Shown here: positions 5,653 through 21,662 of the stretch, in pieces | Layout of the letters: each line of letters begins with the position of its first letter | How positions within the stretch are numbered: the first letter of the stretch is position 1 | Notes under the pieces: generated by a model | What the model was told of the DNA's origin: nothing | Database searches by the model: none | The model's input: only the letters and a program-made list of their open reading frames with translations | Assembly (NCBI GenBank): GCA_015520605.1 | Contig: WAPT01000017.1 | Coordinates: forward strand, 1 to 21,896 | Length of the DNA: 21,896 nt | Reading direction: 5' to 3' | Source of the DNA: Nanobdellati archaeon | GTDB lineage: Archaea; EX4484-52; WAPT01 | Position numbers and translations under genes: made by a program

Positions 5653-7203
5653 TCACATAGGTTCATTGTTTCCTTTCTTAAAGTGCGGTGATGCGGAGAT
5701 GTTTCCAGCTGTCATGTTCTCCATAGTGGTGTTGGTACTGTTACCTACCTCTGTCTCGTTCCATTTCTTTGTTTCGTTTATTTTAGATTTAATCCTGTGT
5801 CTAAGCCCTGTTCTCATTTTGTTCTTCATGCGCTTCAGAGTTTCCTCTCTTTGACCAAGATTTTTCCGCATAAGTTCCTTTCTGACTTCCTGCACAACTC
5901 TCATTATATCTTCAGCCGTTATGTTTCCTTTCTCTTTCTTTATTTCCTCCAGTCTCTCTCTTATTTCTCTCGCCATTCTTTCCTGCTCTTTTTCTTTTAT
6001 TTCCATTCTCCCGACCGGTGATCGTAGCATTGGCGCCATCCCGAATATTTCTCCGAGTTTTCTTGTGTTCATTATTTCACAGTCCCTTCCCGTCACAATG
6101 AAATTTTCAATTCCGTGTCCTGTGCTGCATCTTACAATGTAATTGCCTCTGATCATCGTCACAACTTCGCAGGCATTTTCTTCATTAACATGGGCCTCAA
6201 CAAGTTTTTCCGCATCTTCCGGACCGCATGCCAGTTTTTCCATCTTTTGCCTAATTTCTAGAATTCTGTAAATTGTTCTTCTACCCGGTCTCGCAGCTGC
6301 CATATGTGCCACTCTTTCGCTTTCCTTTGCAAGTTCCCAAGCCGTGAAATATTTCCCGTTGTTAAAGCTTTCCTGCGCCTGTGAGAGCAGGTTCTTAGCT
6401 GTGTTAAGGAGTCTCTTCGCATAATTCAATCTTTCGTTGCTTACATTCCTCGTTTCCATTTTTGCAATCAGATTTTCAACCAATGCTATCGTTCTATTTG
6501 CTTTCGTTATTTCATGCTGGGCTCTGAATTTAATGTTTTTCTTCAGAAGTCCATTCTCGATGTGTTCCAATGTTCTGTTTATTTCTTCACTGTTCATGTT
6601 GTATCGATGTTCCAGCATTTTTATGATCATCCCCCGCCTCATCTCCACTTTTTCTTCTCTTTTCTTTAACCCTTGCCTGAGCTGTTCAAGCATCTGCAGT
6701 ACTTCCTGCCTTGTCTTGTTGTTCTGCAGTGCGATTTCCGCTATATCCTCTGTGTCCATGAGTTCTTCTTTCTGTGCCTCGAGTTGTATGAGTACCTGCT
6801 CTATCATCTCCATCTCTTGTGTATCGTTATTCATCTTTGCTCTTTCCAAATCCTTCTCGAGCTCATTCATTATAGTATCATAGTTCTTTATCGCCTTTTC
6901 CATCGCGGAGGGATCGCCCTTTGCTGCCATCAACTTTGCCTCTTTCAATCTCACATCCGCGAGTTTTAGCATCAGCTCTGTCCTTTTCATCTCATTTCTT
7001 GTGAGAGCAAGCTTTACTCTCTCTATCAGCCCGACCTTGAGTATATATAGTGGGTTATCTGGGGTAATACCTACGTTTTCTGTCCGCTTTAGTACAGTAA
7101 GGATGTTCTGTCCTGTCGTGTTCTGCGCAAGTGCTTTTGCCGGGATTAATACCAGACCCAACAGCAATATCAAACCGAGTATAGTCGAAAGTCTCATTTT
7201 CAT
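5653..7203 (-). CDS. Secreted DUF5667-domain coiled-coil protein
   Basis: Signal peptide ending ALA; GITPDNPLYILKVGLIERVKLALT...LADVRLKEA is the DUF5667 signature; long helical E/K/R body. GGTGA SD at 7209-7213 favours ATG 7203 over GTG 7212. Confidence 0.85.
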   Translation of the reverse strand: MKMRLSTILGLILLLGLVLIPAKALAQNTTGQNILTVLKRTENVGITPDNPLYILKVGLIERVKLALTRNEMKRTELMLKLADVRLKEAKLMAAKGDPSAMEKAIKNYDTIMNELEKDLERAKMNNDTQEMEMIEQVLIQLEAQKEELMDTEDIAEIALQNNKTRQEVLQMLEQLRQGLKKREEKVEMRRGMIIKMLEHRYNMNSEEINRTLEHIENGLLKKNIKFRAQHEITKANRTIALVENLIAKMETRNVSNERLNYAKRLLNTAKNLLSQAQESFNNGKYFTAWELAKESERVAHMAAARPGRRTIYRILEIRQKMEKLACGPEDAEKLVEAHVNEENACEVVTMIRGNYIVRCSTGHGIENFIVTGRDCEIMNTRKLGEIFGMAPMLRSPVGRMEIKEKEQERMAREIRERLEEIKKEKGNITAEDIMRVVQEVRKELMRKNLGQREETLKRMKNKMRTGLRHRIKSKINETKKWNETEVGNSTNTTMENMTAGNISASPHFKKGNNEPM

Positions 7204-7238
7204 CACGCTCACCTTTTATTATTGTTCTGGACACCTGA

Positions 7239-13955: not shown

Positions 13956-14870
13956 TTAGATCCCTGTGGGAATGCCTTCCTTTCCCTCAACTTGCAGGGT
14001 TGTCTGGACGTCCTGATAGTATTGATATCTGAGAGTTATAACGAGGTCGGCTGTCAACACGGGGGATGACAGGTCTGAGGGTAGTGAACACGAAACCGTG
14101 ATATCCTCAGATTTTCCCTGAGACAGATATATGTCAAAGTTTTTCTCGCAGCTGATTCCTGCAGAAGGTATACTGAGGCTCAGGTAAAGTTTGTTGAAAC
14201 TGCTTATCTCGCTTTTTCCATCGCACGGTCCCACATACCCAGAACCTGTGTTAGTTATGTGTAATTTGAGCACGAGCTTTCCGTCGCTGACCACAACAGG
14301 CTGTGTGTTCTCCACACTCACCCGAACGGGAGCATTGGAGTTCTCAATGGTGATCGGCTCCTCCCGTATCCCTTGATTCGCCATTCTTCTGAGATATTCA
14401 TTCTCGTTCATCAACAGCACCTTACCATAGGCTTTAGTTTCGTAGGGATAACATATCCTCGCCATTATATTGTACGAAAACACTTGGCCTGGAGGTAAAT
14501 CGCCAACAAACGTCAGCTTCCAGTATTCTGTCACCTCGCCTCCCGGTGTTCCCAAAGACTCATCTGCGGCCTCCAGACCAAAGGTAACTGGAGTATTTGG
14601 AACGATTCTAAAATCGCTAAGATCCACACCATAGATTATTATTTTTCCATTATTTATCGTTATGGTCCCCGAATTCTTTAAGGTGAGGAACAGTAAGGCC
14701 GTTTGTCCTTCGTATATCTTGTTGGGCTTCACAGAAAATTCCTTGATCACAACCCCTGTTCCTGCTAAATTTGTAACTTTCCCCACAGCTTGGATTTTAC
14801 CGGGCCCCACACATCCCGCGATTAGAACCAACAAAATCGGAATTACAGTTAGCATGTCTTTTTTTCTCAT
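13956..14870 (-). CDS. Putative lipoprotein, paralog 4 of the array
   Basis: MRKK, hydrophobic stretch, IAG-C20-VG; shared motifs LKNSG, ARICYPYET, NAPVRV, ITNTGSG, VSC, YQYY; TAATG coupling to the upstream gene. Confidence 0.88.
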   Translation of the reverse strand: MRKKDMLTVIPILLVLIAGCVGPGKIQAVGKVTNLAGTGVVIKEFSVKPNKIYEGQTALLFLTLKNSGTITINNGKIIIYGVDLSDFRIVPNTPVTFGLEAADESLGTPGGEVTEYWKLTFVGDLPPGQVFSYNIMARICYPYETKAYGKVLLMNENEYLRRMANQGIREEPITIENSNAPVRVSVENTQPVVVSDGKLVLKLHITNTGSGYVGPCDGKSEISSFNKLYLSLSIPSAGISCEKNFDIYLSQGKSEDITVSCSLPSDLSSPVLTADLVITLRYQYYQDVQTTLQVEGKEGIPTGI

Positions 14871-15748
14871 TATTCCCCACCCATAACGGTAAATACTGTA
14901 CTTCGGGTAACATAATATGTGTATGTCGCGATCGCTTTCAAAGTCAACTGGATTTTCGGAACATTAGAAGGAATGTTTTCTATAGTGCATTCGATGGTCG
15001 CTTCACTATTGGATAAATAAATGTCGGAATTCCTGATACATCTAACACTTCCTATGCTGGATTCCAAGATGAATCTTTTTATTCTGTTGGTGTTTTCAAA
15101 TGAAGGTGTGGCTTTTGAGGGGGTGCAGTCGGAACTTGCGGGAAATCCGTCGCCAATATTTTTTATTCTGAAGACCACATATAACTTTCCCTTGGAGGTG
15201 TAATACTTCGGAGCACCAACCATTTCTATGGAAATCGGCGATGTAGTTTGAGTTGAGCGTTTCATGAAAACATTTCCTCGCGTAACTAAAGACTCTTCAC
15301 GTGAGTAGACCACTACCGTTGCGAGGTAAATGGAACGGTAATCGTAGCATGTCCGGACGTACAAAGTATATTGCTGTTTCGTCCTTTCGGGTATGTCCGC
15401 ATTTGCTCGAAGTTCTTCAACTATCGTTTTTCTTTCTCCTGGAATGTCATTAACAGGATCCGCTGGGTTCAGCTCAAAACTCTCATGAATGGGATTAAGC
15501 CATGCCGGGCCATATACATATAGATATCCCGATGTTTTGTAGGTCCCGTCGTTTTCCAGATCAACTCTGAGAGTAAAATCATCACCCTTGAAAACTTCTC
15601 TCGGGACGATATCCACGGAATTCATCACCACGCCATCGACCGATGTTGCGGTCGCAGAATGTGATGAGATAGAACCACCTCTGCCGACACAGCCCAAGGT
15701 AAGTAGAAGCGCAAAAAAAATAATGGATACTCTTTTTCTCACCCACAC
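14870..15748 (-). CDS. Putative lipoprotein, paralog 3 of the array
   Basis: RKR, hydrophobic stretch, TLG-C20-VG; LENDG, VRTCYDYRS, TSPISI, IKNIGDG, IEC, YTYY. Confidence 0.88.
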   Translation of the reverse strand: MWVRKRVSIIFFALLLTLGCVGRGGSISSHSATATSVDGVVMNSVDIVPREVFKGDDFTLRVDLENDGTYKTSGYLYVYGPAWLNPIHESFELNPADPVNDIPGERKTIVEELRANADIPERTKQQYTLYVRTCYDYRSIYLATVVVYSREESLVTRGNVFMKRSTQTTSPISIEMVGAPKYYTSKGKLYVVFRIKNIGDGFPASSDCTPSKATPSFENTNRIKRFILESSIGSVRCIRNSDIYLSNSEATIECTIENIPSNVPKIQLTLKAIATYTYYVTRSTVFTVMGGE

Positions 15749-15780
15749 ACCACCTTGAAAATTAACAGGATAAGTCCGGT

Positions 15781-16743
15781 CTAACTCTGATCGGTATCCG
15801 TCATTGAATCCATAACGGTGATTCTGGTAGAGCTTGTTACATAATAGTTATAAAACGCTGTTGCCACGATATCGTATTCAGTTTTTGGTGCGCTTCCCTC
15901 GAAAGCATATGAACAGTAAAGTGTGCCCTCACCATTTCTCAGTCTTACAATACCATCCCCACAATCAATTAGTTTTCCGTCGATGGTGACCACCACTTTT
16001 ACCTTGCCTCTCTCCCTCACATCAGGATCCACAGTACAGCGGTAATCACGGGTTGTGGGGAAACCACCGCCAACATTTGTGATCTTGAACACAAGAGGTA
16101 TCTGGTTTCTTGATGGTCTGATGTTCGGTGTGCCAATAAGGGAAATGTGAATGGGGCCTGCAGAGTTCCTTATTGCTCCCTCGCTTTTTTCTGGGCCCTC
16201 GTACCGCAATTCATTCGAAGAGGTTACTGTTATCTTTGCTATCATTGTTGTTGAATACGGATAGCAGAGTCTCGCATAAAAGGTGTAATCGTTTGTCATT
16301 CCCTCAGGGAGATTGGGAGGCTCCATTTCCACATAAAACATCTTCAACGTACCCGGAATCCCCATCTCCGGATCCGGAGGTAAGAATTCTTCATTAGACA
16401 AAGAAAGGGTCATGAACTCATTTGTATCATCGACTGTGAACTCTCCCGGATTGGAAACGTACCACTCCTCTCCCTTTTTTGATTTATCTGTGGTCATGGG
16501 AGTTCCATAAATATATACTGTTGTGTTTCCCGGAATCCGTTTTGCTCCCACATTTTCTATCGATAAAGATAGCGTCGTGCTCTCATCATCATAAATCTTA
16601 TTCATGTCGAAGGAAAAATCCTTTATTACCGCCCCCTCTGTCATGGAATAGGATGTTGTATTGCTCCCACCGCCAACACATCCAGAAATAACCACAACTA
16701 TGGCAATTACCATAAGCAAACATGCGAGTTTTTTTATTTTCAT
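15781..16743 (-). CDS. Putative lipoprotein, paralog 2 of the array
   Basis: MKIKK, hydrophobic stretch, ISG-C22-VG; IENVG, ARLCYPYST, SAGPIHI, ITNVGGG, LYC, YNYY; GGTGA SD. Confidence 0.9.
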   Translation of the reverse strand: MKIKKLACLLMVIAIVVVISGCVGGGSNTTSYSMTEGAVIKDFSFDMNKIYDDESTTLSLSIENVGAKRIPGNTTVYIYGTPMTTDKSKKGEEWYVSNPGEFTVDDTNEFMTLSLSNEEFLPPDPEMGIPGTLKMFYVEMEPPNLPEGMTNDYTFYARLCYPYSTTMIAKITVTSSNELRYEGPEKSEGAIRNSAGPIHISLIGTPNIRPSRNQIPLVFKITNVGGGFPTTRDYRCTVDPDVRERGKVKVVVTIDGKLIDCGDGIVRLRNGEGTLYCSYAFEGSAPKTEYDIVATAFYNYYVTSSTRITVMDSMTDTDQS

Positions 16744-16803
16744 TTAGACTCACCTATGGTGAATGGAGATATGGGCTTCGTAATATATTGTGTTTTCTGA
16801 AAA

Positions 16804-16823
16804 AGTAATATTTAAATATTACT
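16804..16823. promoter_or_regulatory. Perfect 20-bp palindrome centred on a TATA-like box upstream of lipoprotein paralogs 2-4
   Basis: AGTAATATTT|AAATATTACT. Confidence 0.6.
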
Positions 16824-16961
16824 CTTGAGGTACACCACCCCCGTATTCTTTGTCGATCAGAAATTCTCTATAAAAACCGAAAAACTCAAACCTCATACAT
16901 TTCTGACGAAAACCTGTAAATTACAGGATTCTCTGTTTTTAAAATTTAAACACTGACACCA

Positions 16962-17975
16962 TCATGTGTAGGGTTTTATCTCTATTTTCTTTTCCATAAA
17001 TGTTGAATAAATATACTTCGCGGCCACATCAAATCTGTATGGTGTGAGAATTTCCACATTGGGGACTCTGAACTCACAGTAAAATCGGGAAGAATGCCTG
17101 CCATAGATCTTTAGCATTTCCATCGCGTTTTCTGTGCGCTTTACCGTGAGTTTATGTTCATTTTCGTTATTTTTGAACAACTCGCAGTTCTGTTCATTGA
17201 CAAAAAAATCTGGGGGGTACTTTACCATAAGGCTTAGAATTTCTGCTATACCATTCCCTAAGTTTTCCAAGGTGACGGGGAGTGAAAATGTGCCTCCTGC
17301 AGGATAGGGCTGATCCTCTGCATCCACCATCGCAACAACCGGCCCGAAAGTTGCTATATTGTTCCCTGCCATCGATAAGTCCCTCTTCGTGTAAATTCTC
17401 TGAGCAAGCTCTGTCGGGGATGCAAAGTAGATGTAAGCTGTTGTTTTTGCTTCGGAAATATAAGAAACCTTGAATTTGAATGTGCAATCGTAAGACATGC
17501 CGAAAATCTCTTTTTCGCTTGGTGCCGAGATCTTCCAGAAAAATACGGCAACATCTCCGGGTTTAAGCGGGTATACGCAAATCTTCTCTTTTTTACCATC
17601 GTAATTTATATCTACACTTTCTATTTTCAATTTTCCGGGGGACAGTATTCGAAACTCCTCGATTTTATACAGAGGTTCGCACACGCTGTAGAGGAGCAAC
17701 CCGCCGTTCAACTTGGACACACTACAACCATCGCCATTGCTAATGTTCACGAAGATATTAGCATTGGTCTGCCCTATGTTTTCGACCTCCATCCTGACAA
17801 GAATTGTTTCCCCTGGGTGGATATGTGTGGATGGGGCAATATCTAGTAACTTGATTTTTAAAAGCTCTGATTCCTTCACCTCTGTTTTCTTTGACCCAGT
17901 AGAAATGGGACCAACGCACTGAGACACCAAAACAATGAATGTTATTGAAAGCCAAATAAAAATCTTTTTATGCAT
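16962..17975 (-). CDS. Putative lipoprotein, paralog 1 of the array (more divergent, atypical lipobox)
   Basis: MHKK, hydrophobic stretch, VSQ-C20-VG; VENIG, FKVSY, FGPVVA, LENLGNG, FYC, KYIY. Confidence 0.85.
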   Translation of the reverse strand: MHKKIFIWLSITFIVLVSQCVGPISTGSKKTEVKESELLKIKLLDIAPSTHIHPGETILVRMEVENIGQTNANIFVNISNGDGCSVSKLNGGLLLYSVCEPLYKIEEFRILSPGKLKIESVDINYDGKKEKICVYPLKPGDVAVFFWKISAPSEKEIFGMSYDCTFKFKVSYISEAKTTAYIYFASPTELAQRIYTKRDLSMAGNNIATFGPVVAMVDAEDQPYPAGGTFSLPVTLENLGNGIAEILSLMVKYPPDFFVNEQNCELFKNNENEHKLTVKRTENAMEMLKIYGRHSSRFYCEFRVPNVEILTPYRFDVAAKYIYSTFMEKKIEIKPYT

Positions 17976-17986
17976 GTATCATAATT

Positions 17987-18820
17987 ATGCTGCATCTGAA
18001 ATATATATTTAATGAATACGTTATTCAACCACTATATCTGAATTCCGGATATAACATCGTGAACACAACAATTTATATTATTGTTTTTATGGTCGCACTG
18101 TTTTTAATCTATAAAGAATTATTTCTGAAAAAACGAATAATATTGAGCAATGAATTTCTTGTATCGCTTTCAGGCTGGATGGTGCTCGGGGGTGTGCTAC
18201 GGGTAATGAAAGATGCCGGGATCATCCACTCTCTGATCTTTGTCACGCCTTTCATTTACATCCTCATGTTTGTTTCCGTTCTCGTTGTTTACTTCATCAT
18301 GAAGTTCGCTCGTAAAAAAGGCGTAATTAAAAGCGAAGAGAGAGCATTACTATATACCGGATGGGCTCTGGTGTTAATTTCCATGTCTTTCTTAAAAATA
18401 AAGAACATTTTGGGGATGTCATATGCCCTAGGACTGTGGGGGGTTATGGGTTTATTTTTTTACATTATTTCCAGAAAAGTTAGACTGCTCGATGACGCGT
18501 GGAACTTTTTTGCACTACAAGCGCAGTTACTTGATGCGTGCGGGAGTTCTGTAGGTATAACATACTACGGTTTCTGGGAAAAACATGTGCTTGGACGCAC
18601 TTTAATAAAATTTCTGGAAGACCGTAGGTACTTCCTGATAAATGGTTCCGCCGCCTGGGTCATGATAGCTCTGAAGCTGATCACAGTACCTATAGCGCTC
18701 TGGCTCATAGACAGGTATGGTGAGAACGAACTGGAACGCAGATTTCTGAAACTGATCATAATTATTTTGGGTGTTGGCATAGGAACGAGAAACGTTCTTG
18801 CGATAGGGGTGTTCGGGTAA
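17987..18820 (+). CDS. DUF63 (COG1967) family multi-pass membrane protein; candidate AliA/AliB-like lipoprotein biogenesis protein
   Basis: GYNIVNT..Y, GGVLRVMKD, FVTPFIY, QLLD...S..G, EKHVL, LKL, LG.G.G.RN are DUF63 motifs as I recall them; about 8 hydrophobic segments. Confidence 0.85.
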   Translation: MLHLKYIFNEYVIQPLYLNSGYNIVNTTIYIIVFMVALFLIYKELFLKKRIILSNEFLVSLSGWMVLGGVLRVMKDAGIIHSLIFVTPFIYILMFVSVLVVYFIMKFARKKGVIKSEERALLYTGWALVLISMSFLKIKNILGMSYALGLWGVMGLFFYIISRKVRLLDDAWNFFALQAQLLDACGSSVGITYYGFWEKHVLGRTLIKFLEDRRYFLINGSAAWVMIALKLITVPIALWLIDRYGENELERRFLKLIIIILGVGIGTRNVLAIGVFG

Positions 18821-18836
18821 CTCCCAATGAGTTTAA

Positions 18837-21662
18837 TTATTTGCTGCACTCTGTTTTGCACGGATCTTCCGGCGACCAGTGACATTGCCCATTCTTGCAC
18901 TCGCATCTCTGTTCTATCACTTTCCATCCGTCCTTACAGGCACAGCACCACTTCCTTACGTTACCCTCATCTTTCTCAGTTTCGCATCTTTTGGAACCCG
19001 TCGGCATGAGTATATGATTGCCCAAATGTATCTCCTGAACTTTTTTACTCAATTTCAGAAAATCTATGTTTTTAGTTTTACTACTATTTGGGTATATCTC
19101 CGGATTCGCACATAGACACGGATATTCTATAGTGTAGTTGTCCTTCTTACAAAACTTCAGACAGAGACGTTCATGTTCGCCATCTGATTTATACCAGTCG
19201 TAAAGATAGAACGGAGGCTTTCTGCACATGCAACCCTTGTTCCCCACGACACCGTTATCCACGATAGAATTTGGGTCATAACGGTATGTACAGAACGAAT
19301 CCTGACAGACTTTGTTCGAAGGTAAAATTTTACCATAATTTCCTTTATACGGATTCAGATAATCAAAGTCTACCTTTGTTACATTCTTTATGAATTTTCT
19401 TACTTCCTGTGAGAGTATGTAACTCCCGTCACTTTTTTTATCGTCGGGGTTGAACCACAGAAAATACACCGGACAGACTTTATTCACGGGGTTTGAGGTC
19501 GATTGGCTGCATTTATCCTCTCCCTTAAGCGATTCATCTAACCGTAACTCATGTTTCTCTATAATGTTTGTTACGAATCTGTTTGCCCTTTTCATTAAGG
19601 TGTCGTAATCCAGTCCTCTATTGGATAACATATAATTTAGGGTGGAGGCGCACACACCAGTTTTACATTGAGAATTATCCTTACAGGGCATTCCCACATC
19701 GAGGTGGCACTCGTAGTTGTCCTTTTCGGGTTTATTTTTCATTGTCAGTTTCACGTACCCTCCGATGTTGCACACGCCTTTCTCATACTTAAATTCCATA
19801 TCATATATGTAGGACGAGTTGAGAACCAACGCTTGAGAAGATTCGAACAAAACGCTCACGAGCCCCACGGCTTCTGGAAGATTTATGTCGCTTCTCTTGA
19901 TCACTATGTTCTGATTGCACTTACTCCCCAACGGATCAAGCATTACATCCCCACACTCTACAGAATCGGCCCCGTAGTTTTTCAACGCGCAATACTTAAC
20001 TATTGCGGAGATCACCTTGATTATTGATTTCTTATCTGCCCTCACGGAACAAAGATACTTATTTTTACCCAGCGATTTTGAGAAAACACAGTTATTTTTA
20101 AGAACGGATTCGAATGTCGTTCCATTCTGCCTGTCCTTCGGTATGATGTTTTCGTTTATTTCCGTACACTTTTTGCTCTCAGGGGTCGCAACCACGGTAA
20201 AAGTCAGCGGTTTCTCGTATCTGAAAATGTACTCTATTTTGACCTTCACGACCTCCTCGGTGGATTGCAGAATATTCCCTCTGAACTGCACCTTGCAAGA
20301 AAAATATCTCGAATCTTTAGGCTGTATGCATCGTTTAGTGCTTTCCTTCATGATCTTGATCCTATCCTTCCCGTTTTTTAGATCAAGGGGTTCAAGGACC
20401 CGATAAACATTGTATCCGTCCTGACTCTCAACTTTCTTTCCCTCGACCTTCTTCCAACCGCATTCGGGTTTTATGTTTTTCGGAAGGTAAACGTATATCG
20501 CTTTTATGAACGCGTTGCCGTTTCTTTCGTTCACCACACCCACATAGAGTGTGAAGTTAACCGCGTTGTTTTCTACTGGAATGGGCTGGAGTTTGCTCGT
20601 TCTCAGTGTCACTTTGAAAGGTCCCGCGGAAGACACTGACAGCCTGTCTTCGGGCATTATTTTCTTTCTTTTGAGAAGTTCTAAGTAGTAGTCGTAATCT
20701 ATGAACTCTATTGTGGTGAGTCCTGTTACATTGTACTCGTATTCCAGAAAGGTCTTTAGCCTATAAGTACCGTCACAGTAAGGCGTGAGCAGCGTGAGAT
20801 CCTCGGTTATCATCTGGTTGGGACGGAGCGATGGTAGAGTTTTTACATACGCTCTTCCGAAGTATCTGCCCTCTTCACCTACCCGGGCACCACGCTTGTA
20901 AGCGAGATTACCGAGTACCGCTCCAAAACGAATCTGGCTTGAGGGTTTATCGCCCTTATTTTCTATGGTGAAGATTATGCTGGCCTCCTCATCACTGCTC
21001 GTTGACTTGTCAATTATCAGGGAGGGGTACGATTTCTCTGGTAGGATTTTGACTTTTTCTATTTCAACGCCCAAGCTTGTCTCTCCATTTTCCCGCTTTC
21101 CTTTTTTAACGAACTGTTTCTCGTACCATGCTTCGGGGTCTGTTAACGCCGTCCATGTGTCGTTGAAAAACGCGACTATCGCCTGCCATCCCGCCTGAAC
21201 ATTCTCACCCACACTGAGGGTTGTTCCGGTCGCTTCAGCCTTGGACTGAACGATAGGTCCCCACGCAAGCATCACGGGCATGCCCACCAGAGAATATATT
21301 CCAAGCAGTACCATGATTATTATGAAGCTTCCCTTCTCGTTGAGGTAAACGGATGCCAGAGCCGAGATACACAGAATGCTCAGGATTAAGTAAGAGATAC
21401 CGCCCAAGACCCCCGCAAAAAGGCCGTAGATGAAACTCACGAGCATTACGGCAAAAACCACACCCATACCCGCGATGGATCGCCACGAGGACTGTCTTAA
21501 GCGTTGTCCGATTAATTCCCGTCTCCTGTATATTTCAATCCCGATGAAGACCACCAGAATCGGTACGCTGATTGTTACTGTCAGAAAGATGTTGTTTTTT
21601 GTCAGTATGAACACTATTATGGCCGTCAGGGCCGAGATTATAGTTCCATAAACCACCGACAC
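18837..21662 (-). CDS. 941-aa membrane protein: about 5 N-terminal TM helices, one copy of the array domain, Cys-rich C-terminal region
   Basis: Hydrophobic N-terminal ~135 aa; GVEI..V.I.P, FTIENKG, LEYEY, SSAGPFKV, VVNERNG, FSC, EYIF match the four lipoproteins; 30 Cys in the last 443 aa; GGTGA SD 6 nt before the GTG. Confidence 0.88.
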   Translation of the reverse strand: MSVVYGTIISALTAIIVFILTKNNIFLTVTISVPILVVFIGIEIYRRRELIGQRLRQSSWRSIAGMGVVFAVMLVSFIYGLFAGVLGGISYLILSILCISALASVYLNEKGSFIIIMVLLGIYSLVGMPVMLAWGPIVQSKAEATGTTLSVGENVQAGWQAIVAFFNDTWTALTDPEAWYEKQFVKKGKRENGETSLGVEIEKVKILPEKSYPSLIIDKSTSSDEEASIIFTIENKGDKPSSQIRFGAVLGNLAYKRGARVGEEGRYFGRAYVKTLPSLRPNQMITEDLTLLTPYCDGTYRLKTFLEYEYNVTGLTTIEFIDYDYYLELLKRKKIMPEDRLSVSSAGPFKVTLRTSKLQPIPVENNAVNFTLYVGVVNERNGNAFIKAIYVYLPKNIKPECGWKKVEGKKVESQDGYNVYRVLEPLDLKNGKDRIKIMKESTKRCIQPKDSRYFSCKVQFRGNILQSTEEVVKVKIEYIFRYEKPLTFTVVATPESKKCTEINENIIPKDRQNGTTFESVLKNNCVFSKSLGKNKYLCSVRADKKSIIKVISAIVKYCALKNYGADSVECGDVMLDPLGSKCNQNIVIKRSDINLPEAVGLVSVLFESSQALVLNSSYIYDMEFKYEKGVCNIGGYVKLTMKNKPEKDNYECHLDVGMPCKDNSQCKTGVCASTLNYMLSNRGLDYDTLMKRANRFVTNIIEKHELRLDESLKGEDKCSQSTSNPVNKVCPVYFLWFNPDDKKSDGSYILSQEVRKFIKNVTKVDFDYLNPYKGNYGKILPSNKVCQDSFCTYRYDPNSIVDNGVVGNKGCMCRKPPFYLYDWYKSDGEHERLCLKFCKKDNYTIEYPCLCANPEIYPNSSKTKNIDFLKLSKKVQEIHLGNHILMPTGSKRCETEKDEGNVRKWCCACKDGWKVIEQRCECKNGQCHWSPEDPCKTECSK

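Follow-up and report, generated by a model that had tools for sequence, protein, structure and literature searches.

We analysed a contig of 21,896 nucleotides (nt; WAPT01000017.1, here C17 or the window) from the genome of a Nanobdellati archaeon (GCA_015520605.1; 863 kb in 27 contigs, estimated completeness 90.7%). The nearest Atlas clusters are 100% archaeal and mostly from Candidatus Aenigmatarchaeota. Five minus-strand open reading frames (ORFs), here named A to E, occupy its right-hand part and carry copies of one module of about 290 residues. A to D have the N-termini of lipoproteins and E is anchored by a block of hydrophobic helices; a homologue of AliA, the archaeal lipoprotein lipidation enzyme, is encoded between D and E (Table 1). 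The cluster is real and conserved: nearly all genomes of one phylum have it, and so does about one-fifth of the genomes sampled from other archaea, almost exclusively small ones. We describe below the evidence for the module, its association with AliA, and the roles which the cluster may play at the cell surface.

Five copies of one module around an AliA homologue

Pairwise comparison (BLASTP, five-sequence database) readily related A, B and C, which are 26-27% identical over their full length with E values of 7e-21 to 1.5e-27, the last for B and C. D gave E values of 5e-5 with A, 1e-4 with C and 0.68 with B, and nothing significant was obtained for E against A-D (best E value 0.045), so that pairwise evidence alone links only A, B and C. 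Profiles reached further. Profile A1 was built from A, B, C and 13 homologues of C, with D not included (the search with C gave 14 proteins, C itself counted, from 993 candidates). Against the 4948 ORFs of at least 60 residues in the genome, A1 detected D with an E value of 1.5e-11 in two collinear pieces spanning both halves; E came only sixth (E value 0.015) and was outscored by an unrelated 162-aa ORF matching through its signal-peptide part. In profile-profile comparison (hhalign), a D subfamily of 22 sequences from related genomes aligned with A1 over 291 columns (Prob 99.3, E value 2.4e-20). Similarly, an E subfamily of 6 sequences aligned over 261 columns (Prob 98.5, E value 1.5e-15) with A2, the alignment and profile of 111 sequences of the module family, residues 195-496 of E pairing with 34-315 of C. 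The E and D profiles also matched each other (Prob 96.9, E value 1.8e-10). A2 itself gave E values of 2.6e-73 for A, 2.3e-64 for B and 6.9e-105 for C, and E-like proteins from other genera covered nearly the whole family hidden Markov model (HMM; positions 27-307).

Thus the common module which an initial annotation had proposed for the five minus-strand ORFs was confirmed by similarity at two levels, BLASTP for A-C and profile-profile alignment for D and E; all five are significantly similar, E at profile level only. No members of the family other than these five occur in the genome. The annotation had also presented them as a five-member array: all are indeed on the same strand, but they are not five in a row, as the plus-strand gene at 17987-18820 separates D from E. 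The motifs it listed fall in equivalent columns of the alignment, namely NxG, the C..YxY strand, (A/S)GP, NxGxG (NERNG in E), the late Cys and the terminal YxY/F, and the D-x4-5-PG loop that it ascribed to three copies occupies aligned columns of A, B and C. Its statement that the domain has no named family also stood, as neither Pfam nor NCBIfam gave a match at cut-off on A-E.

The N-termini of A-D consist of a basic start, a hydrophobic stretch and a Cys. LIAGC of A and ISGC of C fit the bacterial lipobox consensus [L/V/I][A/S/T/V/I][G/A/S]C (PMC12462473), and TLGC of B and VSQC of D are off at one or two positions; orthologues of D mostly carry SGC or AGC. The set therefore has the N-terminal signal peptide and lipobox by which archaeal lipoproteins are recognised, with A and C conforming and B and D deviating. 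The lipobox Cys is invariant in all 111 aligned family sequences. With a crude regular expression, a lipobox-like motif was found in 84 of 97 family ORFs below 550 aa (window and 40 in-phylum loci) and in 58 of 70 family ORFs from 20 loci of other phyla, shares that are approximate because ORF starts were picked heuristically. A similarly crude rule gave 11 raw candidates in the whole genome, four being A-D; two of the other seven were judged convincing, which makes A-D four of about six convincing lipobox proteins in 863 kb. The mature domain has four more conserved Cys (in A at 140, 216, 241 and 261; D has six beyond the lipobox Cys), which fits an extracellular location; in C, the predicted disulfide pairs are C160/C236 and C261/C277.

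E is the multi-transmembrane (TM) protein that the initial annotation had set beside four lipoproteins, a division with which these signals agree. Hydropathy placed hydrophobic segments at residues 1-19, 26-44, 60-78, 81-99 and 114-132, and AlphaFold2 (AF2) predicted helices at 2-21, 25-52, 60-82, 85-107 and 109-145, with a low predicted local distance difference test score (pLDDT) of ~50. A block of 3-5 helices just upstream of the module was seen in 17 of the 22 E-like proteins examined, preceded by cytoplasmic extensions of 0 to ~660 residues. The strongly basic loop after the second helix of E suggests an N-in, C-out topology.

The product of the gene between D and E matched PF01889 (DUF63) over residues 8-272 of 277, with an E value of 2.4e-46 and 159.6 bits against a cut-off of 25, as the sole match in the genome. 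The same model matched the control genomes of Haloferax volcanii, M. jannaschii and M. acetivorans. The H. volcanii protein HVO_2859 carries the label 'DUF63 family protein' in a table of PMC9426492 and, with the assignment arCOG02177, the name AliA in PMC12462473. By this correspondence of families, the gene is assigned as an AliA homologue (arCOG02177). The AliA type is characterised by two conserved arginines and the AliB type by histidines (PMC12462473); two arginines (in GGxLR..D and GxRN) were present in 10 of 10 DUF63 neighbours, as judged by eye and with positions not mapped onto HVO_2859 (two further rows of the alignment, which are non-DUF63 proteins, were left out of this count). 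The start of the AliA gene lies 11 bp from that of D, in divergent orientation, and its end 16 bp from that of E, in convergent orientation. This arrangement recurs: of the 36 in-phylum genomes that gave a DUF63 match, at least 15 have an AliA gene on the opposite strand between an E-like and a D-type gene, or beside a D-type gene. In 20 loci from 19 genomes of other phyla, AliA stood beside family genes in 8 and a polytopic family member adjoined the array in 5.

Two side observations concern this gene. The initial annotation omitted it from its account of the array, of which it is the most informative neighbour. In family f3, an ORF of 287-288 aa that is not a DUF63 protein (L037:9271-10131, L038:3593-4456) occupies an AliA-like position beside a short, 405-aa E-like gene.

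Table 1. Coordinates of the five module genes, their parts and other genes of the window
Feature	Position	Strand	Description
A, 304 aa	13956-14870	-	Sec signal peptide, lipobox LIAGC (Cys20), two-lobed module
B, 292 aa	14870-15748	-	Signal peptide, lipobox-like TLGC (Cys20), module
C, 320 aa	15781-16743	-	Signal peptide, lipobox ISGC (Cys22), module
D-C intergenic region, 218 nt	16744-16961	-	
D, 337 aa	16962-17975	-	Signal peptide, VSQC (Cys20), divergent module copy
DUF63 membrane protein (putative AliA homologue), 277 aa	17987-18820	+	Between D and E
E, 941 aa	18837-21662	-	Membrane-anchored module copy
E residues 497-941	18837-20174	-	Cys-rich C-terminal extension, 30 of E's 35 Cys
E residues 195-496	20175-21080	-	Fifth module copy (hhalign and AF2)
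E residues 152-379 (motif core ~165-208)	20526-21209	-	Best-conserved stretch of the E family, between last TM helix and module
E residues 1-145	21228-21662	-	Five hydrophobic helices, predicted membrane anchor (hydropathy and AF2)
PHP-domain protein, EndoQ-like, 430 aa	12373-13665	-	Zn-ribbon-like CxxC pair
Envelope candidate, 444 aa	8975-10309	+	
Envelope candidate, 655 aa	10388-12355	+	
DUF7343 protein, 304 aa	4147-5061	-	N-terminal signal/TM segment, second TM helix, C-terminal winged helix
ORF running off the window end, 498 aa	2-1495	-	N-terminal TM helix, Ser/Thr/Gln/Pro-rich low complexity, no Pfam match
DUF5667 protein	5653-7212	-	Signal peptide, long charged helical regions

Predicted fold, distribution and gene order

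C, the best-conserved type among the module copies, was chosen for structure modelling. The AF2 model obtained with A2 as alignment (mean pLDDT 93.2, predicted template modelling score 0.85) comprises a signal helix (residues 4-21), a lower-confidence linker (~22-36) and a beta-rich body, in which two continuous strands of ~25 residues (150-174 and 287-311) run through both lobes. The two immunoglobulin (Ig)-like lobes joined by long strands that had been surmised from the sequence are thus what the model predicts. The model of E (20 sequences) was of low overall confidence (63.2), its module at residues 199-490 reaching pLDDT 80-90 with long strands (298-322 and 468-490) in the same pattern as in C. 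Ahead of the module, AF2 predicted a pair of juxtamembrane helices (~151-187) in a conserved region: W170, P176, W179, F184, G188, R190, G193, T195, E200, I201, K203 and P208 are invariant in the 6-sequence alignment of the E family. After the module, the extension of E, kept only in the closest homologues, would contain an alpha/beta domain at 517-645 (pLDDT 70-88) and a small beta domain at 890-940, with 648-889 below 50. Residues 497-941 gave no Pfam or NCBIfam match and no usable Atlas match, and the fold lists were dominated by the sandwich module.

Comparison of the whole module with known structures gave distant likenesses. Foldseek against the PDB returned tandem-Ig adhesins and similar proteins at TM-scores of ~0.2, and BFVD gave 0.26 or less, so that among the matches listed no PDB or BFVD entry covers the whole two-lobe unit (TM-score at most 0.26); a profile search against PDB sequences had a best E value of 0.56. 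The comparison of monomer model and fold databases thus yielded two sandwich lobes and, among the matches listed, no characterised protein resembling the whole module.

Single lobes were easier to place. VIA-align, run over 48,161 representative chains and over the top 997 chains of Foldseek, gave as its best match 8gsy (Z 11.2-11.3, root-mean-square deviation (rmsd) 2.4-2.8, 114 residues), on one lobe only, followed by the CLIPPER adhesin domain, cohesins, integrin calf domains, CnaB-type pilin domains, macroglobulin domains and CARDB (3idu on lobe 1: Z 8.5, rmsd 2.7, 98 residues). Each of these matches aligned ~100-125 residues yet spanned model residues ~36 to 313. As some 115 aligned residues extend over that range, we infer that lobe 1 of the model is a common beta-sandwich holding both chain ends and that a second sandwich, set in between the long strands, makes up lobe 2. 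Compared with each other, the two lobes had in common just the CARDB-like motif 'L.L.v.NvG' (20 columns, Prob 45), and the search for an internal duplication of the lobes gave nothing beyond this match.

CARDB (PF07705) and the single sandwiches of CnaB-type, cohesin, integrin calf and macroglobulin (MG) domains superpose on lobe 1. The predicted module differs from CARDB-type modules in its inserted second sandwich and in the two continuous ~25-residue strands through both lobes. The window proteins fell below the CARDB cut-off of 22.7 bits, the best being E (E941) with 12.4 bits and an E value of 0.19, whereas two E-like relatives exceeded it on lobe 1 (28.0 and 25.6 bits); the lobe would accordingly be CARDB-like in fold without the window proteins being members. 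Among 30 in-phylum E-like, extended and neighbouring proteins that were scanned, three had CARDB on lobe 1 and one began with a J-domain; none had a domain of a cell-wall-cutting enzyme. In the protein with the J-domain, an E-like relative of 1265 aa (L025:1541-5335, G034), the N-terminal DnaJ (J) domain scored 28.3 bits (cut-off 27.8) and precedes the TM block by ~450 residues. E-type proteins of some lineages may accordingly be able to recruit Hsp70 through their cytoplasmic end.

By profile search, the module defines a large family without a Pfam or NCBIfam model. Profile A1 matched 2716 representatives (50% identity clusters) at an E value of 0.001 or less, 1135 at 1e-10 and 200 at 1e-30; 19 of the 22 longer matches scanned were without a Pfam domain and the other three had CARDB C-terminal to the module, and 10 cluster look-ups gave no names for relatives. 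A third search for homologues brought in just one more protein. The module was found with A1 in 30 of 31 related GTDB species genomes, and with A2 in 41 of 42 genomes of the source phylum, all 42 from one order, the lone miss being 74% complete. Altogether 76 genomes of a 201-genome sample carry it, the 41 in-phylum genomes and 35 of 159 from other archaeal phyla. The latter 35 are nearly all small (0.6-1.4 Mb, one of 2.1 Mb) and often have tandem copies. In two loci of other phyla (G157:C19:38316-44671, which is L056, and G115:C8, which is L057) the lipobox module is present in six or seven same-strand tandem copies with many overlapping junctions.

Trees were made from 106 module sequences covering at least 230 HMM positions, taken from 40 in-phylum stretches; shorter sequences, E941 included, were dropped. 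D-type sequences formed a group of 22 in FastTree (support 0.975; 25 sequences at 0.89, from 23 genomes and 7 families) and of 22 in IQ-TREE fast (21 genomes, 5 families; SH-like approximate likelihood ratio test (SH-aLRT) 96.5). The A-type comprised 25 sequences in FastTree (22 genomes, 6 families, support 0.88) and 20 in IQ-TREE fast (19 genomes, 4 families, SH-aLRT 99.7). C-type grouping was weakly supported in FastTree (33 sequences) and had an SH-aLRT of 84.6 in IQ-TREE fast (31 sequences, 22 genomes, 3 families), and B grouped in both trees with its two same-genus orthologues only. The large TM-anchored copies fell outside the clades of A, B, C and D (as read from the tree drawing, with no group support value). 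By these trees the D-type and A-type clades are old, which bears out the earlier suggestion of old, retained duplications for types found in 5-7 (D) and 4-6 (A) GTDB families.

Gene order is likewise conserved. A C-type gene directly followed 18 of the 22 D-type genes, with one or two more copies after it, and an E-like gene was directly upstream of at least 15 of the 22, so that TM copy, AliA, D, C and further copies form a recurring order. Adjacent family genes are 30 nt apart or less in 22 of 78 in-phylum pairs and in 34 of 50 pairs outside the phylum (with heuristic start codons). The conserved clustering that had been proposed for testing by HMM search was found, arrays recurring both within the phylum and in other phyla. 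In the window, the start of A overlaps the stop of B (TAATG), and an SD-like (Shine-Dalgarno) GGTGAG lies 7 nt upstream of the ATG of C, with a TTTAAATA-like box farther upstream (by eye). In the D-C intergenic region, a terminator-like hairpin at 16913-16927 runs into T-rich sequence; the region also has, upstream of C, a TATA-like box rich in A/T. In a promoter and terminator scan, the 6 terminator-like sites were no excess over shuffled sequence (mean 7.4), and the hairpin is descriptive only.

Possible roles at the cell surface

DPANN archaea live attached to other cells, and to our knowledge little has been established about how their surfaces are built. For the cluster described here we see an even chance that A-E are AliA-dependent surface lipoproteins and a membrane-anchored paralog acting together as a scaffold or contact platform in DPANN-type archaea. 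A-D would be exported through Sec. AliA would then join archaeol to the lipobox Cys by a thioether, by analogy with the lipoproteins of H. volcanii, and a peptidase would cut off the signal peptide. The mature proteins would be tethered by their N-terminal lipid and a flexible linker of ~12-15 residues. Lobe 1, as it contains both chain ends, should sit near the membrane with lobe 2 outward, each protein forming a short upright rod in the predicted structure. E would present the same rod from its five-helix membrane block through the conserved juxtamembrane helix pair. With their old paralog types, fixed order and tight or overlapping junctions, the products may act together and not as five independent proteins, most likely in a hetero-oligomeric surface scaffold or palisade that would serve envelope structure or contact between cells.

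The closest known counterparts are the lipobox lipoproteins of H. volcanii, which AliA and AliB lipidate, with archaeol thioether-linked to the Cys, as examined there by Triton X-114 partitioning and lipid release with LC-MS (PMC12462473). A-D resemble them in having a signal peptide and an invariant lipobox Cys, and the AliA homologue, which is the one enzyme of AliA/AliB type (PF01889 match) in the genome, is their immediate neighbour. They differ in a mature domain of no described family, in a DPANN host and in the polytopic membrane paralog that completes the set, and are known here from sequence. A-D are thus concrete candidate clients of AliA outside haloarchaea, in a cluster which adjoins the sole gene for this recently discovered archaeal lipidation enzyme.

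The evidence for co-assembly consists of gene order, tight spacing and retention, and several observations weigh against the proposal as a whole. B and D depart from the canonical lipobox. The B-type forms no old clade and the C-type has only moderate support (SH-aLRT 84.6). A search with E941 as single-protein query detected E-like genes in only 25 of the 42 in-phylum genomes, and in family f3 AliA sits elsewhere in the genome. As the sole AliA gene must serve other lipoproteins too, it may be placed here for co-regulation and have no dedicated role. The placing of both termini in lobe 1, inferred from the model, derives from alignment ranges and not from coordinates. Finally, the number of module copies differs between loci outside the phylum (1 to 7) and C-type genes are duplicated in one family, a pattern no less compatible with diversifying independent surface proteins than with a fixed complex.

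Such independent proteins are the main alternative, which we regard as somewhat improbable. A-E would then form a diversifying family of AliA-anchored adhesins or ligand-binding proteins acting singly, in which every paralog has a target of its own, be it a surface, a polymer or a host component. The single-lobe matches to adhesin, pilin, cohesin and CARDB-type sandwiches suit this explanation, as do the varying copy number and the relatives of B- and A-type with extra C-terminal domains (the CARDB of three of the 22 long matches; extended forms of 404-750 aa). The low identity between paralogs, which was noted at the outset and is 26% or less, points the same way. On the other side, D- and A-type genes are single orthologues in fixed order across families, junctions overlap, and a membrane-anchored copy is retained beside the array, all of which would be expected of cooperating subunits more than of binders acting singly.

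A more far-reaching form of the proposed scaffold or contact platform, which we think unlikely, would place A-E and AliA at the centre of a lipid-anchored, hetero-oligomeric machine in the envelope of DPANN archaea at large. E would nucleate a ring or palisade with one copy per lipoprotein type, assembled as AliA lipidates the subunits. It would be the main scaffold or host-contact platform of wall-less episymbionts, coupled to the cytoplasm in some lineages, as the J-domain relative hints.

A polymer seems improbable to us. Type V pilus operons of Bacteroidota (FimA-E, Mfa1-5) consist of tandem paralogous two-sandwich lipoproteins with an anchoring member, and the tandem operon of two-sandwich lipoproteins with an anchored member seen here is of like composition. 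By analogy with these pili, or with archaeal threads, cleaved lipoprotein precursors could join by strand exchange into a fibre with E as anchor; the top Z scores include Gram-positive pilin domains (8gsy at 11.2-11.3; EbpB, SpaD and BcpA at 9.5-10.1). Against this, no type V pilin or archaeal thread structure was among the 50 matches listed in each of five PDB fold searches, and in the 111-sequence consensus the stretch from the lipobox Cys to the first strand (or to the first conserved Gly) lacks a conserved basic residue (Arg or Lys), thus any evident processing site such as that of type V pilins. Moreover, the model of C is complete, with no missing strand at pLDDT 93, and every copy appears, from the invariant lipobox Cys in the alignment, to retain its own lipid anchor. 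Archaea are also not known to have an outer membrane, a further difference from type V pili.

That E, and possibly its paralogs, assist AliA in lipoprotein maturation, for instance as the archaeal lipoprotein signal peptidase (not identified in the available part of PMC12462473) or as a handover factor, is very improbable: conserved adjacency of the E-like gene, AliA and the first lipoprotein gene speaks for it, but the TM block of E is poorly conserved (M1, I9, L94 and W134 alone are invariant in 6 sequences, with no acidic or catalytic-looking residue), the conserved part of E is the extracellular module common to the lipoproteins, and the conserved AliA neighbours in Euryarchaeota, as given in that part of PMC12462473, are GldA, an inositol monophosphatase family enzyme, a metal-binding protein and SpoIIM, with no such module, Euryarchaeota not having been searched for the module specifically.

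We found no description of the cluster or the family in the literature, bioRxiv supplements and subscription journals lying outside the search. None of the papers found contains the two-lobe module or its membrane-anchored paralog, nor a fixed gene arrangement of this kind around AliA. As a general kind, archaeal surface lipoproteins with beta-sandwich ectodomains are familiar. The cluster is a candidate for a basic envelope scaffold or contact surface of these archaea. Even without co-assembly, the family merits definition and its linkage to AliA merits mention.

Other genes of the window

The PHP-domain protein encoded next to A resembles Endonuclease Q (EndoQ); it matched TIGR00375 with an E value of 2.7e-63 and 214.6 bits, below the curated cut-off of 326.6. 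In Supplementary Data 6 of PMC12462473, the AliA gene of an Aenigmarchaeota metagenome-assembled genome is flanked by unassigned ORFs and an Endonuclease Q gene (arCOG04881), a layout that matches the EndoQ-like gene beside lipoprotein genes in the window. In the same source, a 276-aa member of arCOG02079 lies between AliA and EndoQ in that genome, with 15 occurrences of arCOG02079 in AliA neighbourhoods, and a 451-aa member adjoins AliA in a Nanohaloarchaea genome. The A gene resembles arCOG02079 in position and size, on which alone the comparison was made, the arCOG name being an automatic description. Pfam and NCBIfam scans revealed no genes for type IV pili in the window. The available part of PMC12462473 contains no discussion of a cluster of lipoprotein modules.

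The window also codes for an archaeal-type TIM, a radical SAM protein and winged helix-turn-helix regulators. A phage or defence origin was rejected, as PHROGs matches to the window set had E values of 0.0014 or worse and PADLOC returned nothing.

Two more envelope candidates lie to the left of the EndoQ-like gene, on the plus strand. The 444-aa and 655-aa proteins each start with a signal or anchor; a beta-rich body follows, with weak Pfam or NCBIfam matches to Ig-like or 'choice-of-anchor T' domains, and at the C-terminus a hydrophobic helix precedes a basic tail. In related genomes, genes of 645-693 aa with similar Pfam traces adjoin module arrays. These products could be proteins of S-layer type.

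Among the remaining genes, the 304-aa product with DUF7343 (E value 4.7e-17, MarR-like) looks like a membrane-tethered transcription regulator, judging from its domain composition. The 498-aa ORF at the window end has a long charged region, probably coiled-coil, and the signal-peptide protein with long charged helical regions matched DUF5667 with an E value of 4.8e-19.

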